The notes below the pieces were generated by a model. That model did not search any database, had not been told where the DNA came from, and was given only the letters and a program-made list of their open reading frames with translations. Both the position numbers and the translations under genes were made by a program. A DNA stretch of 32,000 nt from Methanocaldococcus jannaschii DSM 2661. Lineage in GTDB: Archaea > AGJL01 > Methanococci > Methanococcales > Methanocaldococcaceae. Location: positions 30,001 through 62,000 of the forward strand of contig NC_000909.1 of the NCBI RefSeq assembly GCF_000091665.1, given 5' to 3'. Shown piece by piece: positions 2,526 to 30,335 of the stretch; position 1 is the stretch's first letter; the number at the start of each line of letters is the position of its first letter.

Positions 2526-3374
2526 ATGAATCCTTTTGGTAGCTATAAAAAAGTTGTCTCAGCAAGGAGTACATTAAAAGAAGTTTTAAAGAAGGCTCAG
2601 GATGGGGGAATCGTTTCAACAGCTTTTATTTATGGATTAGAAAATAATTTATTAGATGGAGTTATAGTTGCAGACAACGCTGGGGAGTTTAAGGCAGTTC
2701 CTAAAGTAGCTACAACACCAGAAGAAGTTTTAGAGGCAGCTGGAACAAAATATACAGTCTGCCCAAACATTTCAGTATTAAAGAGTGCTGTTAGAGAATA
2801 TGGCTGTGAAAAAATTGGAGTTGTTGGAACACCTTGCCAAGTTAGAGCTGTAAGAAAGTTGATGAAATATCCAGTAGGATTTAGACACGTTCCAGATAAG
2901 ATTGCTTTAATAATCGGAATCTTCTGTATGGAGAACTTCCCATACTACGGATTGAAGTTGATTGTTGAAGAACACTGTGGAGTTAAGATGGAGGATGTCG
3001 TCAAGATGGATATTGGAAAGGGTAAGTTCTGGGTCTATACAAGATGGGGAGAGACAAAAGCGATTAAATTAAAAGAAACTCATCCTTATGAACAAATCGC
3101 TTGCCATGTTTGTACAGATTATACCGCAGAGTTGGCAGATATTTCAACAGGTTCAGTTGGAAGCCCAGACGGATGGAGCACTGTATTTATAAGAACTGCT
3201 AAGGGAGAAGAAATATTTAACAAAATGGTTGAAGATGGGTATTTAGAAGTTAAACCAATAGAAGAAGTTAAACCAGGATTAGGATTAGTTGAGAAATTAG
3301 CACTGCAAAAGAAAGAGAAAAACATGAAAGAAATCGAACATAGAAAAGAGCTCGGACTACCTATTCCATACTAA
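2526..3374 (+). CDS. fruB: F420-reducing hydrogenase beta subunit (FrhB family, F420/FAD-binding)
   Basis: ATG 2526 lies 6-8 nt behind GAGGTGG; the track start TTG 2511 is less likely. FrhB-family motifs are present ([31 protein letters not shown]). It is the last gene of the fru cluster. Confidence 0.85.
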
Positions 3375-3439
3375 GAGGCACTGCCGAGCGTAGCGAGGCA
3401 GTGCATCCGTTTTGATGAACCTTTTACTAAAAGGTTCAT
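3375..3439 (+). repeat. GC-rich hairpin insert, modules A+B
   Basis: Hairpin A spans 3378-3404: gcactgcc-gagcgtagcga-ggcagtgc. Hairpin B spans 3415-3439: atgaacctttt-act-aaaaggttcat, a perfect 11-bp stem. The same modules recur at other sites in the window. Confidence 0.75.
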
Positions 3440-3490
3440 GTGAAGGAAATAGAGCATAGGAAAGAATTAGGATTACCAGTGCCTTATTAA
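3440..3490 (+). other. Displaced second copy of the last 16 codons plus stop of fruB (not in frame with fruB)
   Basis: 51 nt, 37/51 identical to 3324-3374. It translates to [16 protein letters not shown] versus [16 protein letters not shown]. An oligo-T run follows (3501-3530). Confidence 0.8.
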
Positions 3491-3628
3491 AAATATTACT
3501 ATTTTCTTGTTCTTTTTTTATTTATACTATGCCAATTTTTTCATTTAGGATTATTTTTTTCATCAAAGCTATTTTGATTTATAAGTTTTAAATATCTGAT
3601 GAGGGTATCCTATTTTTGGTGATAAAAA

Positions 3629-5248
3629 ATGAAAACTGATATCTTAATTATAGGCGGAGGAGGAGCTGCTGCAAGGGCGGCAATAGAATGCAGAGATAAG
3701 AATGTCATAATAGCTGTTAAGGGATTGTTTGGAAAGAGTGGATGCACAGTTATGGCTGAAGGAGGTTATAACGCAGTATTTAATCCAAAAGATAGCTTTA
3801 AGAAGCATTTTTATGACACAGTAAAAGGAGGGGGATTTATAAACAATCCAAAGCTGGTAGAGATTTTAGTTAAAAATGCTCCTAAAGAGCTTTTGAACTT
3901 AGAAAGGTTTGGAGCTTTGTTTGATAGGACTGAAGATGGCTTTATAGCTCAAAGACCATTTGGAGGGCAGAGTTTTAATAGAACTTGCTACTGTGGAGAT
4001 AGAACAGGACATGAAATAATGAGAGGTTTAATGGAATATATCTCAAAATTTGAAAGGATTAAGATTTTAGAGGAGGTTATGGCAATAAAGTTGATTGTTA
4101 AAGATAACAGATGCTATGGAGCGATATTTTTAGATTTAAAGACTGGGAATATATTTCCAATATTTGCTAAAGCAACTATATTGGCAACTGGAGGAGCTGG
4201 GCAACTATATCCAATAACATCCAATCCAATACAAAAGACTGGAGATGGTTTTGCTATAGCTTATAATGAAGGAGCTGAACTTATAGACATGGAGATGGTT
4301 CAATTCCATCCAACTGGAATGGTTGGGACTGGAATTTTAGTTACAGAGGCCGTGAGAGGAGAAGGAGGAATTTTATACAATAAATATAAAGAGAGATTCA
4401 TGGTAAGATACGACAAGGAGAGAATGGAGCTATCGACAAGGGATGTTGTTGCAAGAGCTATATATAAAGAGATTCAAGAAGGTAGAGGAGTTAATGGAGG
4501 AGTTTATTTAGACGTTTCTCATTTGCCTAATGAGGTTATTGAAAAGAAGTTAGAAACTATGTTAAAGCAATTTTTGAGAGTAGGAATTGATATTAGAAAG
4601 GAGCCGATGATTGTTTCTCCGACTGCTCATCATTTTATGGGAGGTTTAAAGATTAATGAAAGATGTGAAACCAATATAATTGGATTATTTGCATGTGGAG
4701 AGGTTACAGGGGGAGTTCATGGAGCTAATAGATTAGGAGGGAACGCTTTAGCAGATACCCAGGTCTTTGGAGCTATTGCTGGAAAATCTGCCAAAGAGTT
4801 TGTTGAAAATCATGATTTTAATAATATTGATGCTGAAGAAGATGTTGCCAAAATATTGGAGGAGATAAATAGCTTGAAAGGAGATTTAAACGTCTATAAT
4901 TTAATTGAAGATTTGAGAAAGGTTATGTGGGATTATGTATCCATTATTAGAAATGAGGATGGATTAAAAAAAGCCTTAGAAAAAATTGATGAAATTGAGA
5001 GAAATATAGATAATGTCAAAGTTAATGGAATTATTGACTTGCAGAACTACTTTGAATTGAAAAACATGGTTGTTGTTGCTAAGTTGGTTACAAAATCTGC
5101 TTTATATAGAAAGGAGAGTAGAGGAGCACATTATAGGGAAGACTTTCCAGAAACAAAGGAAGAGTGGAGAGGAAATATTATTATAAAAGGAAAAAAGATG
5201 TGGTTTGAAAAGTTGGATTATAGTGTCTTTCAAAACTTCTTGGAATAA
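3629..5248 (+). CDS. tfrA: Fumarate reductase / succinate dehydrogenase flavoprotein family (thiol:fumarate reductase subunit A-like)
   Basis: N-terminal FAD fold DILIIGGGGAAARAA, plus HPTG, RGEGG and SRGAHYREDFP motifs. SD GGTGAT lies upstream of the ATG. Confidence 0.8.
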   Translation: MKTDILIIGGGGAAARAAIECRDKNVIIAVKGLFGKSGCTVMAEGGYNAVFNPKDSFKKHFYDTVKGGGFINNPKLVEILVKNAPKELLNLERFGALFDRTEDGFIAQRPFGGQSFNRTCYCGDRTGHEIMRGLMEYISKFERIKILEEVMAIKLIVKDNRCYGAIFLDLKTGNIFPIFAKATILATGGAGQLYPITSNPIQKTGDGFAIAYNEGAELIDMEMVQFHPTGMVGTGILVTEAVRGEGGILYNKYKERFMVRYDKERMELSTRDVVARAIYKEIQEGRGVNGGVYLDVSHLPNEVIEKKLETMLKQFLRVGIDIRKEPMIVSPTAHHFMGGLKINERCETNIIGLFACGEVTGGVHGANRLGGNALADTQVFGAIAGKSAKEFVENHDFNNIDAEEDVAKILEEINSLKGDLNVYNLIEDLRKVMWDYVSIIRNEDGLKKALEKIDEIERNIDNVKVNGIIDLQNYFELKNMVVVAKLVTKSALYRKESRGAHYREDFPETKEEWRGNIIIKGKKMWFEKLDYSVFQNFLE

Positions 5249-5329
5249 CTGAGGTATAAATGAACGCCTTCCGAAGGAAGGGCGTTCAAACCTTCCTTAG
5301 TAAATTTTTATTAATTTTGAAAGACACTA
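5221..5329 (+). repeat. Extended hairpin spanning the tfrA stop codon: 15-bp perfect inverted repeat enclosing a GC-rich hairpin
   Basis: tagtgtctttcaaaa (5221-5235) is the reverse complement of ttttgaaagacacta (5315-5329). The central hairpin is tgaacgccttcc-gaa-ggaagggcgttca (5261-5288, one bulged nt). Confidence 0.6.
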
Positions 5330-5369
5330 CGATGTTGATGAATATCTAAAAAATCTTTAAAATAATGGT

Positions 5370-5430
5370 TTGGCTCAGCTGCGGGAGTAGTCATCACAGA
5401 ATCAGATAGCGAAATTGTCATCATCGCCAA
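5370..5430 (-). ncRNA. C/D box sRNA (2'-O-methylation guide)
   Basis: The minus strand reads uuggc-g-AUGAUGA(C)-caauuucgcuau-CUGA(D')-uucu-GUGAUGA(C')-cuacucccgcag-CUGA(D)-gccaa. Both guides are exactly 12 nt, and a 5-bp terminal stem uuggc/gccaa closes the RNA. It starts 7 nt after the sufBD stop. Confidence 0.85.
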
Positions 5431-6411: not shown

Positions 6412-6450
6412 TTATTCCCTCTCCTCTGGGACTTTTTTGTAGCATTTTCC
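6412..6450 (-). other. Displaced second copy of the sufC 3' end (12 codons plus stop)
   Basis: The minus strand reads gga aaa tgc tac aaa aaa gtc cca gag gag agg gaa taa = GKCYKKVPEERE*. The real tail is GKCYKKVPDGK* (6564-6529). Confidence 0.75.
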
Positions 6451-6528
6451 TCAGCATAGGAGAAACTCCTATTGCGATACCTATAACACCTCCTCGCTTC
6501 GCTCGGAGGTGTAAATTATTTTGTAGGA
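6451..6528 (-). repeat. GC-rich hairpin insert, modules A+C (minus orientation)
   Basis: Hairpin A spans 6486-6512; the minus strand reads acacctcc-gagcgaagcga-ggaggtgt. Hairpin C spans 6454-6475; the minus strand reads gcaataggag-ttt-ctcctatgc. Confidence 0.75.
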
Positions 6529-7269
6529 CTATTTTCCATCTGGCACTTTCTTATAGCATTTTCCACACTCTTTTTTATAAAACTCTCCAACTTCCTTTGG
6601 GTCTCCACTCTTTATAACCTCTCCAGCACAGATTAAAGAGACTCTATCGGCATGTTCAGCTAACTCCTCTCTGTGTGTAATAACTAATAAAGAACATCCT
6701 TTATCCTTTAAATAGTCAAAAACTCTCTTAATCTCATCAAATGATACAATATCTATCCCACTATCTGGCTCATCTAAGATAGCCAAATCCGGCTCCATAC
6801 AGATAATTGAAGCTAACTCTATCCTCTTTCGCTCTCCTCCACTTAGTGTTTCATCCACATATCTATCTAAATATTTGTCTGGGTCTAAATTTACCAATTT
6901 TAAAGCTTCCCTAATTTTTTCCTCTGCTATTTCTTTATCTTTCTTATACTTTTCATTCATTCCAAGCATTAAGTAGTTTTTAACTTTAATCCCCTCAAAT
7001 CTTGCAGGTTCCTGCCAAGCTAAAGTCATTCCCATCCTCGCCCTTTCAGTAATATTTTTATCAATTATATCAACACCTTTAAATATAATCCTTCCCTTAG
7101 TTGGTTTATATCCGGAAATTCCCATTATTGTATAAGCTAAGGTTGATTTTCCCGCTCCATTCGGCCCTATAATTGCATGAATCTCATTTTCCTCTACAGT
7201 TAAATTTACACCTTTTAAAATCTCTCTGTTCCCTCTATAAACATGTAAATCCTCTACTTTTAATAACAT
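6529..7269 (-). CDS. sufC: FeS assembly ATPase SufC (ABC ATPase)
   Basis: Walker A GPNGAGKST, signature LSGGERKR, Walker B LAILDEPDSGID. The ATG at 7269 (MLLKVEDL) lies 5 nt behind GGTGA. The track start at 7281 is a GTG inside that SD. Confidence 0.9.
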   Translation of the reverse strand: MLLKVEDLHVYRGNREILKGVNLTVEENEIHAIIGPNGAGKSTLAYTIMGISGYKPTKGRIIFKGVDIIDKNITERARMGMTLAWQEPARFEGIKVKNYLMLGMNEKYKKDKEIAEEKIREALKLVNLDPDKYLDRYVDETLSGGERKRIELASIICMEPDLAILDEPDSGIDIVSFDEIKRVFDYLKDKGCSLLVITHREELAEHADRVSLICAGEVIKSGDPKEVGEFYKKECGKCYKKVPDGK

Positions 7270-7406
7270 GATACTCACCAAAAATTATAAATAGGTCTTT
7301 TGTGAATGTTCATTAAAAGCGGATATATTTTTAATAGCTCATACAATAAAAAGATTACCATATCGATAAAATAAAAATAACAAAAACATGCCAGGTCTCT
7401 TCAGAC

Positions 7407-7504
7407 CCATAGGGAAACCCCTATTGAGATACCCGAGTGGGGCTTCACTACGTTCAGCCCCACTGTAGTCTAGTATCCCAATAGGGCGAAGCCCTATGGA
7501 AATA
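7407..7504 (-). repeat. GC-rich hairpin insert, modules C-A-C, flanked by 25-nt direct repeats
   Basis: Hairpin C spans 7407-7426 and hairpin A spans 7436-7464 (agtggggc...gccccact; the minus-strand core is ugaacguagugaa). A second hairpin C spans 7477-7499 (cccaataggg-cgaag-ccctatgg). Direct repeats at 7382-7406 and 7505-7529 are 23/25 identical. Confidence 0.75.
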
Positions 7505-7550
7505 AAAAACATGCCAGGTCTCTTTGGACTGGCGACCATCGGGTGATAGA

Positions 7551-9443: not shown

Positions 9444-9476
9444 AAAATTTCACCCTTCATTTAAATCTACGAATAT

Positions 9477-9611
9477 ATCGGAGCAATAAACACCCTGGAC
9501 TTAATTTACACCTCCGAGCGTAGCGAGGAGGTGTTAGGTTTTGATGAAACCGAAGCATTAGCTTCGGGCTATGAAAACTCGGAGAGTTTTCATTTAACTT
9601 TTTCTAAAAGT
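9477..9611 (+). repeat. Composite GC-rich hairpin insert (module A, two extra perfect hairpins, degenerate module B), flanked by 21-nt direct repeats
   Basis: Hairpin A spans 9508-9534 (acacctcc-gagcgtagcga-ggaggtgt). Further hairpins are ccgaagc-atta-gcttcgg (9550-9567), atgaaaactc-gga-gagttttcat (9571-9593) and aactttt-tct-aaaagtt (9596-9612). Direct repeats at 9456-9476 and 9612-9632 are 18/21 identical. Confidence 0.7.
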
Positions 9612-9650
9612 TTCATTTAAATTTACAAATTTAAAGGAGTAATAAAAAAA

Positions 9651-10394: not shown

Positions 10395-10437
10395 AATTCT
10401 CACCTTTTTGAATAGGTTTTTAAATGAGGCATTAATT

Positions 10438-10495
10438 GCCTCTGAAAGAGGCAACTTAATGCATCTGTTTTGATCAACCTTTTTCTAAAAGGTTG
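10438..10495 (+). repeat. Hairpin insert: short GC hairpin plus module B, overlapping the pus10 stop
   Basis: gcctc-tgaaa-gaggc spans 10438-10452. gcatctgttttgatcaacctttttctaaaaggttg (10461-10495) closely matches gcatccgttttgatgaaccttttactaaaaggttca at 3402-3438. Confidence 0.7.
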
Positions 10496-11879: not shown

Positions 11880-12527
11880 TTAAATCATTGTTGGCTCCCA
11901 AAATGCAATCCAACACTTTATAAGCTTTTCAATTAACTCCGGTCTTTGTGATAATGGTGGATTTTCTGAATATTTCTCTCCTAAGTATAACCTTAGTCCT
12001 TCATCTCCCTCTTTAAGCTCAAATCCTAATTTTTCTGCTATCTCTTCCATTCTTTCTTTTGGTAGCTTTATTTTACTTTTATTAACTCCCTCAATAATAC
12101 CAAATTTTTGCTTTACGTATATATCGTTATCTTCATCAACTTGGAAATTTTTAGTTTTGACACTACCACAATAGTGAGATACGGATTTAACTACATATAC
12201 CATTCCTCTATATTCTGGTTTTTTAGCAATTTGCCATATTCTGAATTCATATATTTCTCCATTTATGTTTGCTTTTACTCTAAGGGCTTTTAATACATCC
12301 TCAGATTTTGTATCTTTATATGGTGAAGTTTTCTTTGTTTCCTCTATTTCAAGTATTTTTACATCTAAAAAATCTTTATCTCTTTTATTTTTCATTTTCT
12401 CACCCATAGGTTTTACTACGTATATTGAAGTCCCACATTTAGGGCATTTTACTTCCATAGCGTCTCCCCCACTATCTTCTTCAACAACATATATCCATGC
12501 CCCACATTCTGGACATTTCACATTCAT
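11880..12527 (-). CDS. Hypothetical protein with tandem N-terminal zinc ribbons
   Basis: An internal repeat is MNVKCPECGAWIYVV followed by MEVKCPKCGTSIYVV. SD AGGTGAT precedes the ATG. I recognise no family for the C-terminal 170 aa. Confidence 0.6.
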   Translation of the reverse strand: MNVKCPECGAWIYVVEEDSGGDAMEVKCPKCGTSIYVVKPMGEKMKNKRDKDFLDVKILEIEETKKTSPYKDTKSEDVLKALRVKANINGEIYEFRIWQIAKKPEYRGMVYVVKSVSHYCGSVKTKNFQVDEDNDIYVKQKFGIIEGVNKSKIKLPKERMEEIAEKLGFELKEGDEGLRLYLGEKYSENPPLSQRPELIEKLIKCWIAFWEPTMI

Positions 12528-15903: not shown

Positions 15904-16569
15904 TTACCTCCTTATAATTAAGACTTTATTTCCTCCTTTCATAAATTCATAATCTGTCTTTTCAATCCTTGCTTTATATTCCTTTAAAATCTTGTCCAAA
16001 AATATTGATTTCTCCCCTCTTAAATTTAATATTGGGAATATTCTAATTTCTTCAGAAATCCTTAAAAGCTCATCAATTGTTTCTTTATGGAATTGATAGT
16101 TGAGGATATTATCATACAACAACAAAAAATGCCCTACAAGAGAAATAGCAAATTCATCATCTTTAAAATTCGTTTTTGGATAAGTTGTGTAGATATATCT
16201 TTTCCTATTTGTTTTATAATCCTCAATAAATGTTTTGTAAGTTCTTTCTCTTGTTTTCTTCCATTCATCAACTGTTTTAAATTCATTCCAGTTAAAGTTG
16301 TTTTTAAACATCCCTCTTAAATGTTTTTCCATAAAATCCAAGTCTTTTTTACATTTTTCTTCAATTTCCTCTGGTTTTAGATTATAAATTTTATCTGAAG
16401 ATGTAATGTTATAGCCTTTTTTATTCCCTTCTGCACAAAAAGAGCTAACTCCAGAGGCAACATCTAAGATTTTGTTGCTTAATAAATCTTCATTTAAATT
16501 AAACATCCTTACATATTCATTAAAATTCCTTCCAAGTAAGACAGTATCTTTTAAATTCAAATATCTCAC
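15904..16569 (-). CDS. Putative SAM-dependent methyltransferase-like protein
   Basis: Only a motif-I-like ILDVASGVSSF is visible. It overlaps the upstream gene by 4 nt. Confidence 0.45.
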   Translation of the reverse strand: MRYLNLKDTVLLGRNFNEYVRMFNLNEDLLSNKILDVASGVSSFCAEGNKKGYNITSSDKIYNLKPEEIEEKCKKDLDFMEKHLRGMFKNNFNWNEFKTVDEWKKTRERTYKTFIEDYKTNRKRYIYTTYPKTNFKDDEFAISLVGHFLLLYDNILNYQFHKETIDELLRISEEIRIFPILNLRGEKSIFLDKILKEYKARIEKTDYEFMKGGNKVLIIRR

Positions 16570-18656: not shown

Positions 18657-18795
18657 GATACCACCATTTTTATTCAATTTTTAATTTCTGTTATTTTTGC
18701 TATTAAATACTTTTTATAAAATATTAATTGTTATATTCAAATATATTGATAAAGATAAAAACAAAATAACAATAAGCTGATTTTAATTAAAACAG

Positions 18796-19115
18796 AATCC
18801 CATTCCGAAACGGTCTGATTTTAATTATCTTATAAATTAAAAGCATTGAAATATAATACTCATCCGTTTCCATCCTCTATCCATTCTCTAAGAGGTCTGA
18901 TTTTAATCTTCAGTAAATACTGTTTTAATGCCTTCAATCTTATCTATTTCCATCCTCCAAGAGGTCTGATTTTAACAATTATTTGGGAAAAGGGAAAAGT
19001 ATCAATAACAGATAAATTTCCATTCCGAAACGGTCTGATTTTAACTAACGCCAAAAACCTCCATTACCCCCAGCATAACAACTGGATTTCCATTCCGAAA
19101 CGGTCTGATTTTAAC
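18796..19115 (-). CRISPR. CRISPR array with 5 repeats and 4 spacers (40, 38, 39 and 40 nt); transcribed strand inferred as minus
   Basis: Repeats lie at 19086-19115 and 19016-19045 (minus strand GTTAAAATCAGACCGTTTCGGAATGGAAAT). The repeat at 18946-18976 is a variant, GTTAAAATCAGACCTCTTGGAGGATGGAAAT. The repeat at 18866-18907 is that variant with an 11-nt internal duplication. The repeat at 18796-18825 is degenerate. Degeneration increases away from the AT-rich 400-bp non-coding block at 19116-19515. Confidence 0.9.
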
Positions 19116-29466: not shown

Positions 29467-30225
29467 GTGATTGGTATAATAGGAGGGACAGGAATAGCTG
29501 AAATATTAAAAGGAGACAAAGAAGAGATTATAAATACAAAATATGGGAAAGCAAGAGTTATAATTGATAAAGAAAACGAAGTAGTTTTGTTATTTAGGCA
29601 TGGAGTAAGACATAACATCCCACCACATAAAATAAACTATAGGGCTAACATCTACGCTTTAAAAAAGTTGGGAGTTGAAAGAATATTGGCTATAAATTCA
29701 GTTGGTTCATTAAAAGAAGATTTAAAGCCTGGAATGTTTTTTGTTCCAAATGATTTTATAGAATTTACAAAGAAGAGAGAAGAGACGTTTTACGATGAAG
29801 GAAAAGTTGTTCATATAGATATGACAGACCCTTACTGTCCAGAGTTGAGAAATATTTTAAAATCAATATTAGATAAAAATAACTTCTCTTATGGAGAAGG
29901 CGTTTATGTTTGCACTGAAGGACCGAGATTTGAAACAAAAAAAGAGATAGCCATATACAAAAACTGGGGGGATGTTGTAGGAATGACTGGATATCCTGAA
30001 GTTGTTTTAGCAAGGGAGTTGGAGATGTGCTATGTCTCTCTATGCAACATAACAAACTATGCCTGTGGAATATCAAAAAATATTTTAACAGTTGATGAAG
30101 TTTTGGAAAAAATAAAAGAGATGGAAAATAAAATTTTGAAAGTTGTTGAGGACTTTATAAATTATGGCTTTGGAGAGAGAAAGTGTATCTGCAAAGATGC
30201 TTTGAAACATGCTGTTATTGGGTAA
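29467..30225 (+). CDS. mtnP: 5'-methylthioadenosine / purine nucleoside phosphorylase (PNP family 2)
   Basis: The GTG start lies behind GGTGAT. Motifs are IGIIGGTG, FRHG..H, EGPRFET and GMT. Confidence 0.85.
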   Translation: MIGIIGGTGIAEILKGDKEEIINTKYGKARVIIDKENEVVLLFRHGVRHNIPPHKINYRANIYALKKLGVERILAINSVGSLKEDLKPGMFFVPNDFIEFTKKREETFYDEGKVVHIDMTDPYCPELRNILKSILDKNNFSYGEGVYVCTEGPRFETKKEIAIYKNWGDVVGMTGYPEVVLARELEMCYVSLCNITNYACGISKNILTVDEVLEKIKEMENKILKVVEDFINYGFGERKCICKDALKHAVIG

Positions 30226-30251
30226 ATTATAAAACTAAAATCCTTTAATTT

Positions 30252-30309
30252 ACACCTCCGAGCGTAAGCGAGGAGGTGTTGGGGTATCCCAATAGGGTTT
30301 CCCTATGGG
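30252..30309 (+). repeat. GC-rich hairpin insert, modules A+C
   Basis: Hairpin A spans 30252-30279 (acacctcc-gagcgtaagcga-ggaggtgt). Hairpin C spans 30288-30309 (cccaataggg-ttt-ccctatggg). Confidence 0.75.
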
Positions 30310-30335
30310 CTTTAAAACATGCTATTATTGGATAA
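30309..30335 (+). other. Displaced second copy of the last 8 codons plus stop of mtnP
   Basis: gct tta aaa cat gct att att gga taa compares with gct ttg aaa cat gct gtt att ggg taa at 30199-30225 (24/27 identical). The peptides are ALKHAIIG* and ALKHAVIG*. Confidence 0.75.

Follow-up and report, generated by a model that had tools for sequence, protein, structure and literature searches.

Small palindromic repeats are usually seen as inert filler or as simple miniature transposons. In E. coli, the end of the icd gene is reportedly replaced by prophage e14 or by phage 21, and IS1634-type insertion sequences, which are autonomous and carry a transposase, produce long target duplications of variable length. 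The closest described small repeats are the palindromic repeats MJRE1-3 of Methanocaldococcus jannaschii (Suyama, Lathe and Bork, FEBS Lett 2005, as cited in PMC2229807 and PMC2996958), which the citing papers present as short GC-rich palindromes, mostly extragenic, some of which reach into coding regions. Related in kind are the MITEs (miniature inverted-repeat transposable elements) and the repetitive extragenic palindromes and bacterial interspersed mosaic elements (REP/BIME) of bacteria and archaea (PMC2229807, PMC3184786). In the type VI secretion system (T6SS) effector arrays of Vibrio cholerae, gene ends are reportedly displaced by imported modules (PMC5361080). Here we analyzed 32,000 nt of the M. 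jannaschii DSM 2661 genome (assembly GCF_000091665.1, contig NC_000909.1, positions 30,001 to 62,000 of the forward strand; "the window", G+C 31.8%), in which a hairpin insert at the 3' end of fruB is flanked by two copies of that gene end. Nearly every hairpin cluster of this family is accompanied by a long duplication of its target, by which the neighbouring gene stays whole, and the leftover gene ends keep the statistical signature of working genes.

The fruB locus has the following features (positions are those of the window):

2526..3374, + strand: fruB/frhB, beta subunit of the F420-reducing hydrogenase, 282 amino acids, the working frame (Pfam PF04422 and PF04432)
3324..3374, + strand: copy 1, the working gene end, in frame with fruB and closed by its TAA stop codon; the Ile at its third-last residue is derived
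3375..3439, + strand: 65-nt insert of a repeated hairpin family, recognized by its fold, by further copies in the window and by its absence from all relatives
3377-3404: hairpin A of the insert, with the conserved loop GAGCGTAGCGAG
3409-3419: linker of the insert, GTTTTGATGAA
3415-3439: hairpin B of the insert
3440..3490, + strand: copy 2, the displaced former gene end, out of the fruB frame and joined to the native 3' flank
3491..3628, + strand: original spacer between fruB and tfrA, which contains oligo-T runs and, upstream of tfrA, a conserved stretch; assigned from alignments with relatives

Copy 2 lies 116 nt downstream of copy 1 and matches it at 37 of 51 nucleotides. The 14 differences fall on third (10) and first (4) codon positions and never on a second one; at first positions, two changes leave a Leu codon silent, and the others give M/V and I/V. 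In its predicted fold, the 65-nt insert forms a pair of hairpins (-30.1 kcal/mol; z = -6.2 relative to shuffled sequences), which stay separate stems in the minimum-energy fold of 3300-3530. A preliminary description of this DNA had given the coordinates, the identity, the codon-position split and the hairpin insert, and all were recovered on recomputation. The oligo-T run that it placed after copy 2 only is seen directly in the sequence; a scan for bacterial-type terminators found nothing. No similarity was found between the sequence upstream of copy 1 and that upstream of copy 2. The copies share no identical stretch longer than 5 nt, and the flanking-repeat score of the pair is beaten at 1.5% of random positions with equal spacing. 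Their homology is real, because the single fruB tail of each relative matches both copies by BLAST. Copy 2 most likely lies in the 3' untranslated region.

Comparison with relatives shows which end is ancestral. All 10 element-free relatives (FS406-22, M. fervens, sp. 10A, M. bathoardescens, strain L218 and five metagenome alleles) have one fruB tail and no hairpins, followed by a flank that matches the sequence after copy 2. The FruB protein is 96-99% identical to its homologues in other Methanocaldococcus, and its C-terminus reads ...GLPVPY in every close relative; copy 1 alone carries Ile (IPY). The preliminary description had raised the questions of whether empty sites exist, which tail they carry and whether copy 2 is unrelated intergenic sequence. 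The sites are vacant, their tails are VPY, and it is to copy 2 that the relatives' tail and flank align. This arrangement, a single VPY tail joined to the copy-2 flank, identifies copy 2 as the displaced original end and copy 1 as the present working end, and the 116-nt addition is specific to the M. jannaschii lineage. Every contig with the exact FruB protein is 100% identical to the window, so these contigs give no population variation. Many public metagenome assemblies hold contigs 100% identical to the M. jannaschii strain, and several of these stop at or beside hairpin clusters; the hairpin repeats therefore break short-read assemblies. When a genome collection was scanned with TfrA, the matches listed were mostly distant homologues; those among them that were related came from sp. 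28A, from M. indicus and from one contig of Methanothermococcus. In sp. 28A, tfrA is not adjacent to fruB.

The hairpins form a family. The hairpin A loop reappears in the window on differing, compensating stems, and the linker and hairpin B reappear as well. With up to 3 mismatches allowed, the loop has 3 matches against 0.03 expected, and a fourth copy, at 30252, contains a 1-nt insertion; linker plus hairpin B have 2 matches against 0 expected. Adding 17 kb from identical contigs to the window yielded one further cluster, giving 7 clusters of the fruB-insert family in the 49 kb examined. For the complete M. jannaschii genome, 141 elements have reportedly been counted. Rfam contains no family matching the hairpins, the plasmid collection holds no copy of the element, and scans of viral contigs with hairpins A and C gave two irrelevant GC-rich matches and no element. 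A metagenome scan with the 15-nt hairpin-A loop was discarded as unspecific, since it returned 120 unrelated contigs, mostly GC-rich.

The preliminary description knew of no archaeal element of this kind, which does not hold for the hairpins themselves. They probably belong to MJRE1-3, a likeness drawn through the papers that cite that family (PMC2229807, PMC2996958): the organism group is the same, the repeats are short GC-rich palindromes, most are extragenic, and some enter coding regions, as one does at the Pus10 end described below. The accounts of MJRE1-3 that were consulted mention no long target duplications, regenerated gene ends or allele-like copies. We found no literature description of flanking gene-end duplications or of allele-like divergence, as far as this could be checked, the 2005 paper being known through its citations. 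The hairpin repeats are thus known, and the duplication behaviour appears undescribed.

Each hairpin cluster was scanned for flanking repeats, and a hairpin-blind search was made for pairs of the form X-gap-X'. In six of the seven clusters, direct repeats of the target, 20-51 nt long, stand directly on both sides (peptide ends are written up to the stop codon):

fruB end: repeat of 51 nt, 37/51 identical; coding
6412..6564, - strand: end of a sufC-like ABC ATPase gene; repeat of 29 nt, 25/29 identical; coding
6529-6564: sufC-like working end (..GKCYKKVPDGK)
6412-6450: sufC-like displaced end (GKCYKKVPEERE)
6451-6528: sufC-like hairpin cluster, with hairpin A at 6486-6512 and a second hairpin at 6454-6475
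7382..7524, + strand: rpS15 leader; identical 20-nt copies AAAAACATGCCAGGTCTCTT at 7382-7401 and 7505-7524; non-coding
7402-7504: three-hairpin cluster of the rpS15 leader
9456..9646, + strand: Rpb4/DUF655 spacer (both genes on the - strand); repeat of 35 nt, 29/35 identical; non-coding
9456-9490 and 9612-9646: the two spacer copies, around a 121-nt cluster at 9491-9611
30199..30335, + strand: MTAP end; repeat of 27 nt, 24/27 identical; coding
30199-30225: MTAP working end (ALKHAVIG); 30226-30308, cluster; 30309-30335, displaced end (ALKHAIIG)
39127-39293 (L227 9852-10018), outside the window, about 7 kb past its right end: end of an ATPase_2-family gene; repeat of 45 nt, 43/45 identical; coding
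10407-10495, reverse orientation: Pus10/L21e cluster of 89 nt, the seventh cluster, with no flanking duplication

Block-shuffled sequence gave flanking-repeat scores of at most 12, and the five pairs other than fruB scored 17-39; the fruB pair was missed by the ungapped scan. No comparable flanked pair was found in about 130 kb of the relatives' DNA, and relatives are vacant at four of the sites (sufC, rpS15, DUF655 and fruB). The sufC-like site is vacant in FS406-22, 10A, L218 and 28A. L218 and 28A are also vacant at the rpS15 leader, where both M. jannaschii copies share the species-specific ACATG, and at the DUF655 site, where each has one copy; 9456-9490 differs from it at 6 sites and 9612-9646 at 2. 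The DUF655-adjacent copy carries GATATATTCG, and the other copy and the relatives carry TTTAAATTTG; both are TATA-like. Our data demonstrate that target duplication is the usual state of these clusters in the 49 kb of the M. jannaschii genome examined. At the exceptional Pus10/L21e site, the cluster replaced 7 nt and its hairpin B supplies a new Pus10 end (...NLLEKG). The Pus10 and L21e genes of relatives overlap, stop on start, by 17 nt; in M. jannaschii, the two genes are separated by the cluster.

The flanked clusters share a common architecture. In all four coding cases, the element is oriented with the gene, it is the upstream copy that serves as working end, and both copies reach a stop codon. 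The preliminary description had the duplicated fruB block running from a start-type codon to the stop codon. The second half of that statement extends to all four blocks; the first does not, as the other blocks begin with TGT, GCT and TTA. The displaced gene-end copies contain neither indels nor internal stops, and from them to the next gene downstream the distance is 27-138 nt. On its right, the insert stops exactly where a hairpin ends in every case; on its left, there are 0-26 nt that are unrelated. Inspection by eye of the joints between insert and copy 2 revealed no consistent pattern of microhomology. Repeat lengths are 20, 27, 29, 35, 45 and 51 nt, and the divergence between copies ranges from 0 to 27% across cases.

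The lengths set these repeats apart from those of MITEs. The fruB insert resembles MITE and REP/BIME elements as a small non-coding hairpin repeat in 3' untranslated or intergenic DNA, often in mosaic clusters. MITEs, however, are bounded by terminal inverted repeats and duplicate a short target of fixed length. Terminal inverted repeats are absent from the fruB insert (its first 15 nt, GAGGCACTGCCGAGC, and the reverse complement of its last 15 nt, ATGAACCTTTTAGTA, do not match), and the flanking repeats vary between 20 and 51 nt. A classical MITE is found 1.8 kb away, inside the 3' end of tfrA (5221-5360), with a length of 109 nt, perfect 15-nt inverted repeats (TAGTGTCTTTCAAAA / TTTTGAAAGACACTA) and a TA target. 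The C-terminus of TfrA is now MITE-encoded (...DYSVFQNFLE), and the ancestral DVDEYLKNL persists, intact and unread, at 5330-5360; TfrA of relatives ends in ...DYDVDEWIKNL or ...DYDIDEYLKNL. IS1634-type sequences are also flanked by direct repeats that vary in length and span tens of bases. Unlike the hairpins, they are autonomous elements with a transposase.

The codon-position bias applies beyond fruB. Within the 27 nt shared by the sufC-like copies, all 4 differences are at third positions. The MTAP copies differ at 3 sites, two of them synonymous third positions and one a first position (V/I), and the 2 differences of the ATPase outside the window are third-position changes in adjacent synonymous Lys codons (AAG AAA vs AAA AAG); there, LNGH extends the working copy. 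Pooled over the four gene ends, the 23 differences comprise 18 third, 5 first and 0 second positions, and only 4 codons change the amino acid. The probability of zero second-position differences among 23 is about 9e-5. The same profile is seen between species, where orthologous fruB tails differ at 20 first, 8 second and 65 third positions; the bias between the copies matches it.

We simulated decay after in-place duplication, with a working copy that accepts only synonymous changes and a displaced copy that drifts freely, under four mutation spectra that included uniform, transition-biased and AT-biased ones. In 2000 runs per spectrum, none reached 18 third-position differences, and none had as few as four amino-acid-changing codons. 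Simple neutral decay is excluded. The preliminary description had argued at fruB that neutral decay does not fit, and pooling the four gene ends strengthens the point. A plain decayed target-site duplication, with the codon bias put down to chance or mutation bias, would explain the geometry, in which the copies abut the insert on both sides, and the vacant sites in relatives. It is nonetheless hardly credible, since the observed bias appeared in 0 of 2000 simulations under the uniform, transition-biased and AT-biased spectra, second positions are untouched, and lengths of 20-51 nt are unlike a fixed transposase stagger.

The spread of divergence, 0-27% between cases, suggests another possibility, namely that selection acts against repeat identity. 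Clusters with perfect repeats would be deleted quickly, and the survivors would be those diverged at sites where neither the gene nor signals overlapping copy 2 are harmed. The position of the displaced copies, close enough to the next gene to overlap its signals, agrees with this. However, an unread copy would be the easiest place for change, with any codon position expected to be hit, and overlapping signals would give no three-base periodicity. We regard this explanation as very unlikely.

Purifying selection on copy 2 itself would produce just the codon-position pattern that is observed. It would require copy 2 to be used, either through removal of the 116-nt unit from RNA or DNA, which would restore the VPY tail, or through a 16-residue peptide started at GTG 3440. 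The sequence AAGGT precedes this GTG, the displaced copies are all free of indels and internal stops, and the position of FS406-22 midway between the two fruB copies fits in-place divergence of both. On the other side, an in-frame stop codon lies 9 nt upstream of GTG 3440. The displaced sufC-like copy starts with TGA and has no in-frame start, and the displaced MTAP copy likewise lacks one; independent initiation, which the preliminary description had offered, thus fails as a general explanation. Its other proposal, import by recombination, is better supported. Archaeal splicing needs a bulge-helix-bulge pairing, which is impossible with direct repeats. The non-coding cases have an identical architecture, and under in-place divergence both copies would have to outpace the rest of the gene two- to threefold. 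Use of copy 2 therefore seems improbable to us, if less so than selection against repeat identity.

Several features of the copies resemble differences between alleles. The fruB copies differ at 10 of 17 third positions, compared with an interspecies range of 2-9 of 17 for this tail; the gene-wide value against FS406-22 is 28%, and the copy-to-copy divergence is well above it. In the sufC-like gene, the tail of copy 1 (VPDGK) is close to VPEGK of M. vulcanius, and that of copy 2 (VPEERE) is close to VPEEKE of other relatives. The near-identical relatives P0243 and P0244 differ in exactly these tail types. The sufC copies thus resemble a pair of tail types found in nature, both of them complete and closed by a separate stop codon. 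Both kinds of copy contain derived changes: Ile in fruB copy 1, Ile in MTAP copy 2, and ATA, TAT and GTG in fruB copy 2. The differences are therefore not errors limited to one copy. Error-prone synthesis of copy 1 was considered as a source and ruled out, as displaced copies carry derived changes too. The junction codon is altered in two displaced copies, ATG to GTG in fruB and TGT to TGA in the sufC-like gene, as expected at a joint that is not read. Sister pairing with FS406-22 is near-constant along the compared DNA and breaks at 3629-4000, at the start of tfrA and just to the right of copy 2 (87.9%, vs 91-92% to the bathoardescens/10A group), which indicates a recombinant tract in one of the two genomes.

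We hypothesize, with a probability of about 0.5, that insertion of the hairpins brought a long, variable target duplication and that the copies carry allele-type differences through recombination among diverged Methanocaldococcus lineages, at insertion or later. A long duplication of variable length would arise together with the hairpin insertion. A mechanism that duplicates the resident target does exist, because the two rpS15 copies are identical and share M. jannaschii-specific bases; the rpS15 leader is inferred to be the youngest case. Incoming DNA of element-free relatives could then pair either with the upstream copy and the gene body or with the downstream copy and the 3' flank, and homologous recombination from relatives would be unable to cross the heterologous hairpin block. 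Diverged Methanocaldococcus DNA may thus have rewritten the upstream copy along with the gene body in some events and the downstream copy along with the downstream flank in others. All incoming tails would be working gene ends, and overwriting would have to outpace random change in either copy. If every imported tail is functional, both copies would show allele-type differences only, and the displaced copy would stay gene-like without being a gene.

Two variants of this hypothesis are equally compatible with the data: gradual conversion after in-place duplication, and a joint made in one step, where imported homeologous DNA meets resident DNA and the gene end is their overlap. In the one-step variant, either copy 1 with the hairpins, or the hairpins with copy 2 and downstream DNA, would come from a diverged relative. 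The recombination would have an anchor on a single side and could be homology-facilitated illegitimate recombination, integration of the Campbell type, or the restart of a fork on a homeologous template. The block of hairpins would be the illegitimate joint, and duplication and divergence would be a single event. The complete sufC tail types with their own stop codons, the sharp right edge at a hairpin end against a left edge with 0-26 unrelated nucleotides, and the phylogenetic discontinuity just right of copy 2 are all consistent with such an import. So is the observation that, in the two cases that can be polarized, relatives are less similar to the copy beside hairpin A than to the other copy. 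Against it, the identical rpS15 copies show that in-place duplication exists, the joints lack an evident microhomology pattern, a foreign left segment would need donors with a cluster at the same site, which relatives do not have at these loci, and the donors would have to be unsampled ones. Considered by itself, the one-step import is a possibility that we hold tentatively, well short of an even chance.

Two known systems bear comparison with these sites. In icd, as at fruB, an alternative 3' end stands upstream, the displaced original lies downstream, and the differences are said to be mostly synonymous. The e14 and phage 21 elements are kilobases long, encode an integrase and recombine at an identical core, whereas the inserts described here are 65-121 nt, contain no gene and, at fruB, are flanked by copies whose longest shared run is 5 nt. 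In homology-facilitated illegitimate recombination and, reportedly, in the T6SS arrays, foreign DNA is imported through one-sided homology in a conserved gene, and a remnant of the old sequence is left downstream. Those processes are bacterial and carry kilobase cargo; here the "cargo" would be a hairpin repeat, and the process is a proposed one.

Several observations weigh against the hypothesis of duplication followed or accompanied by recombination between lineages. No sampled genome qualifies as a donor: no known relative stands out as the nearest to either fruB copy, and most variable sites are two-state. FS406-22 lies almost exactly midway between the fruB copies (three-way branches of 7.5, 6.5 and 0.5), a position that is also compatible with an FS406-like ancestor from which both copies diverged in place. 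The sampled relatives are about 10% diverged and no segment exceeds 96% identity; recent exchange with the sampled lineages is therefore not seen. The foreign tract at 3629-4000 may sit in FS406-22 and not in M. jannaschii. The evidence comes from 49 kb of a single genome and includes four coding cases, and the mechanism that generates the 20-51-nt duplication is a gap in this explanation.

We also considered whether the clusters actively insert or join DNA at gene boundaries and regenerate the interrupted end, acting either as recombination joints with a 20-51-nt overlap or through use of the displaced end after the unit is removed at the RNA or DNA level. This seems rather doubtful to us. 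If either the joint or the displaced-end reading were true, a repeat family of prokaryotes would show a behaviour not described before. If the recombination hypothesis is true, the sites would form a natural record of allele exchange between hyperthermophilic methanogens. They would also show that conversion from live alleles can keep a dead sequence gene-like, which calls for caution in tests that take synonymous-only divergence as a sign of function. If it is wrong, some other insertion or processing mechanism is at work.

Other features of the window lie apart from these sites. Genes at 11880-12527 and 15904-16569 (- strand) are missing in the syntenic L218 and 28A; they encode a 214-amino-acid zinc-ribbon protein and a 220-amino-acid protein without a Pfam match. 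A short CRISPR remnant at 18785-19115 contains two repeat types on opposite strands (DR13 and DR39). Between tfrA and sufBD, the C/D-box small RNA sR39 is found at 5373-5428 on the - strand (73.7 bits).

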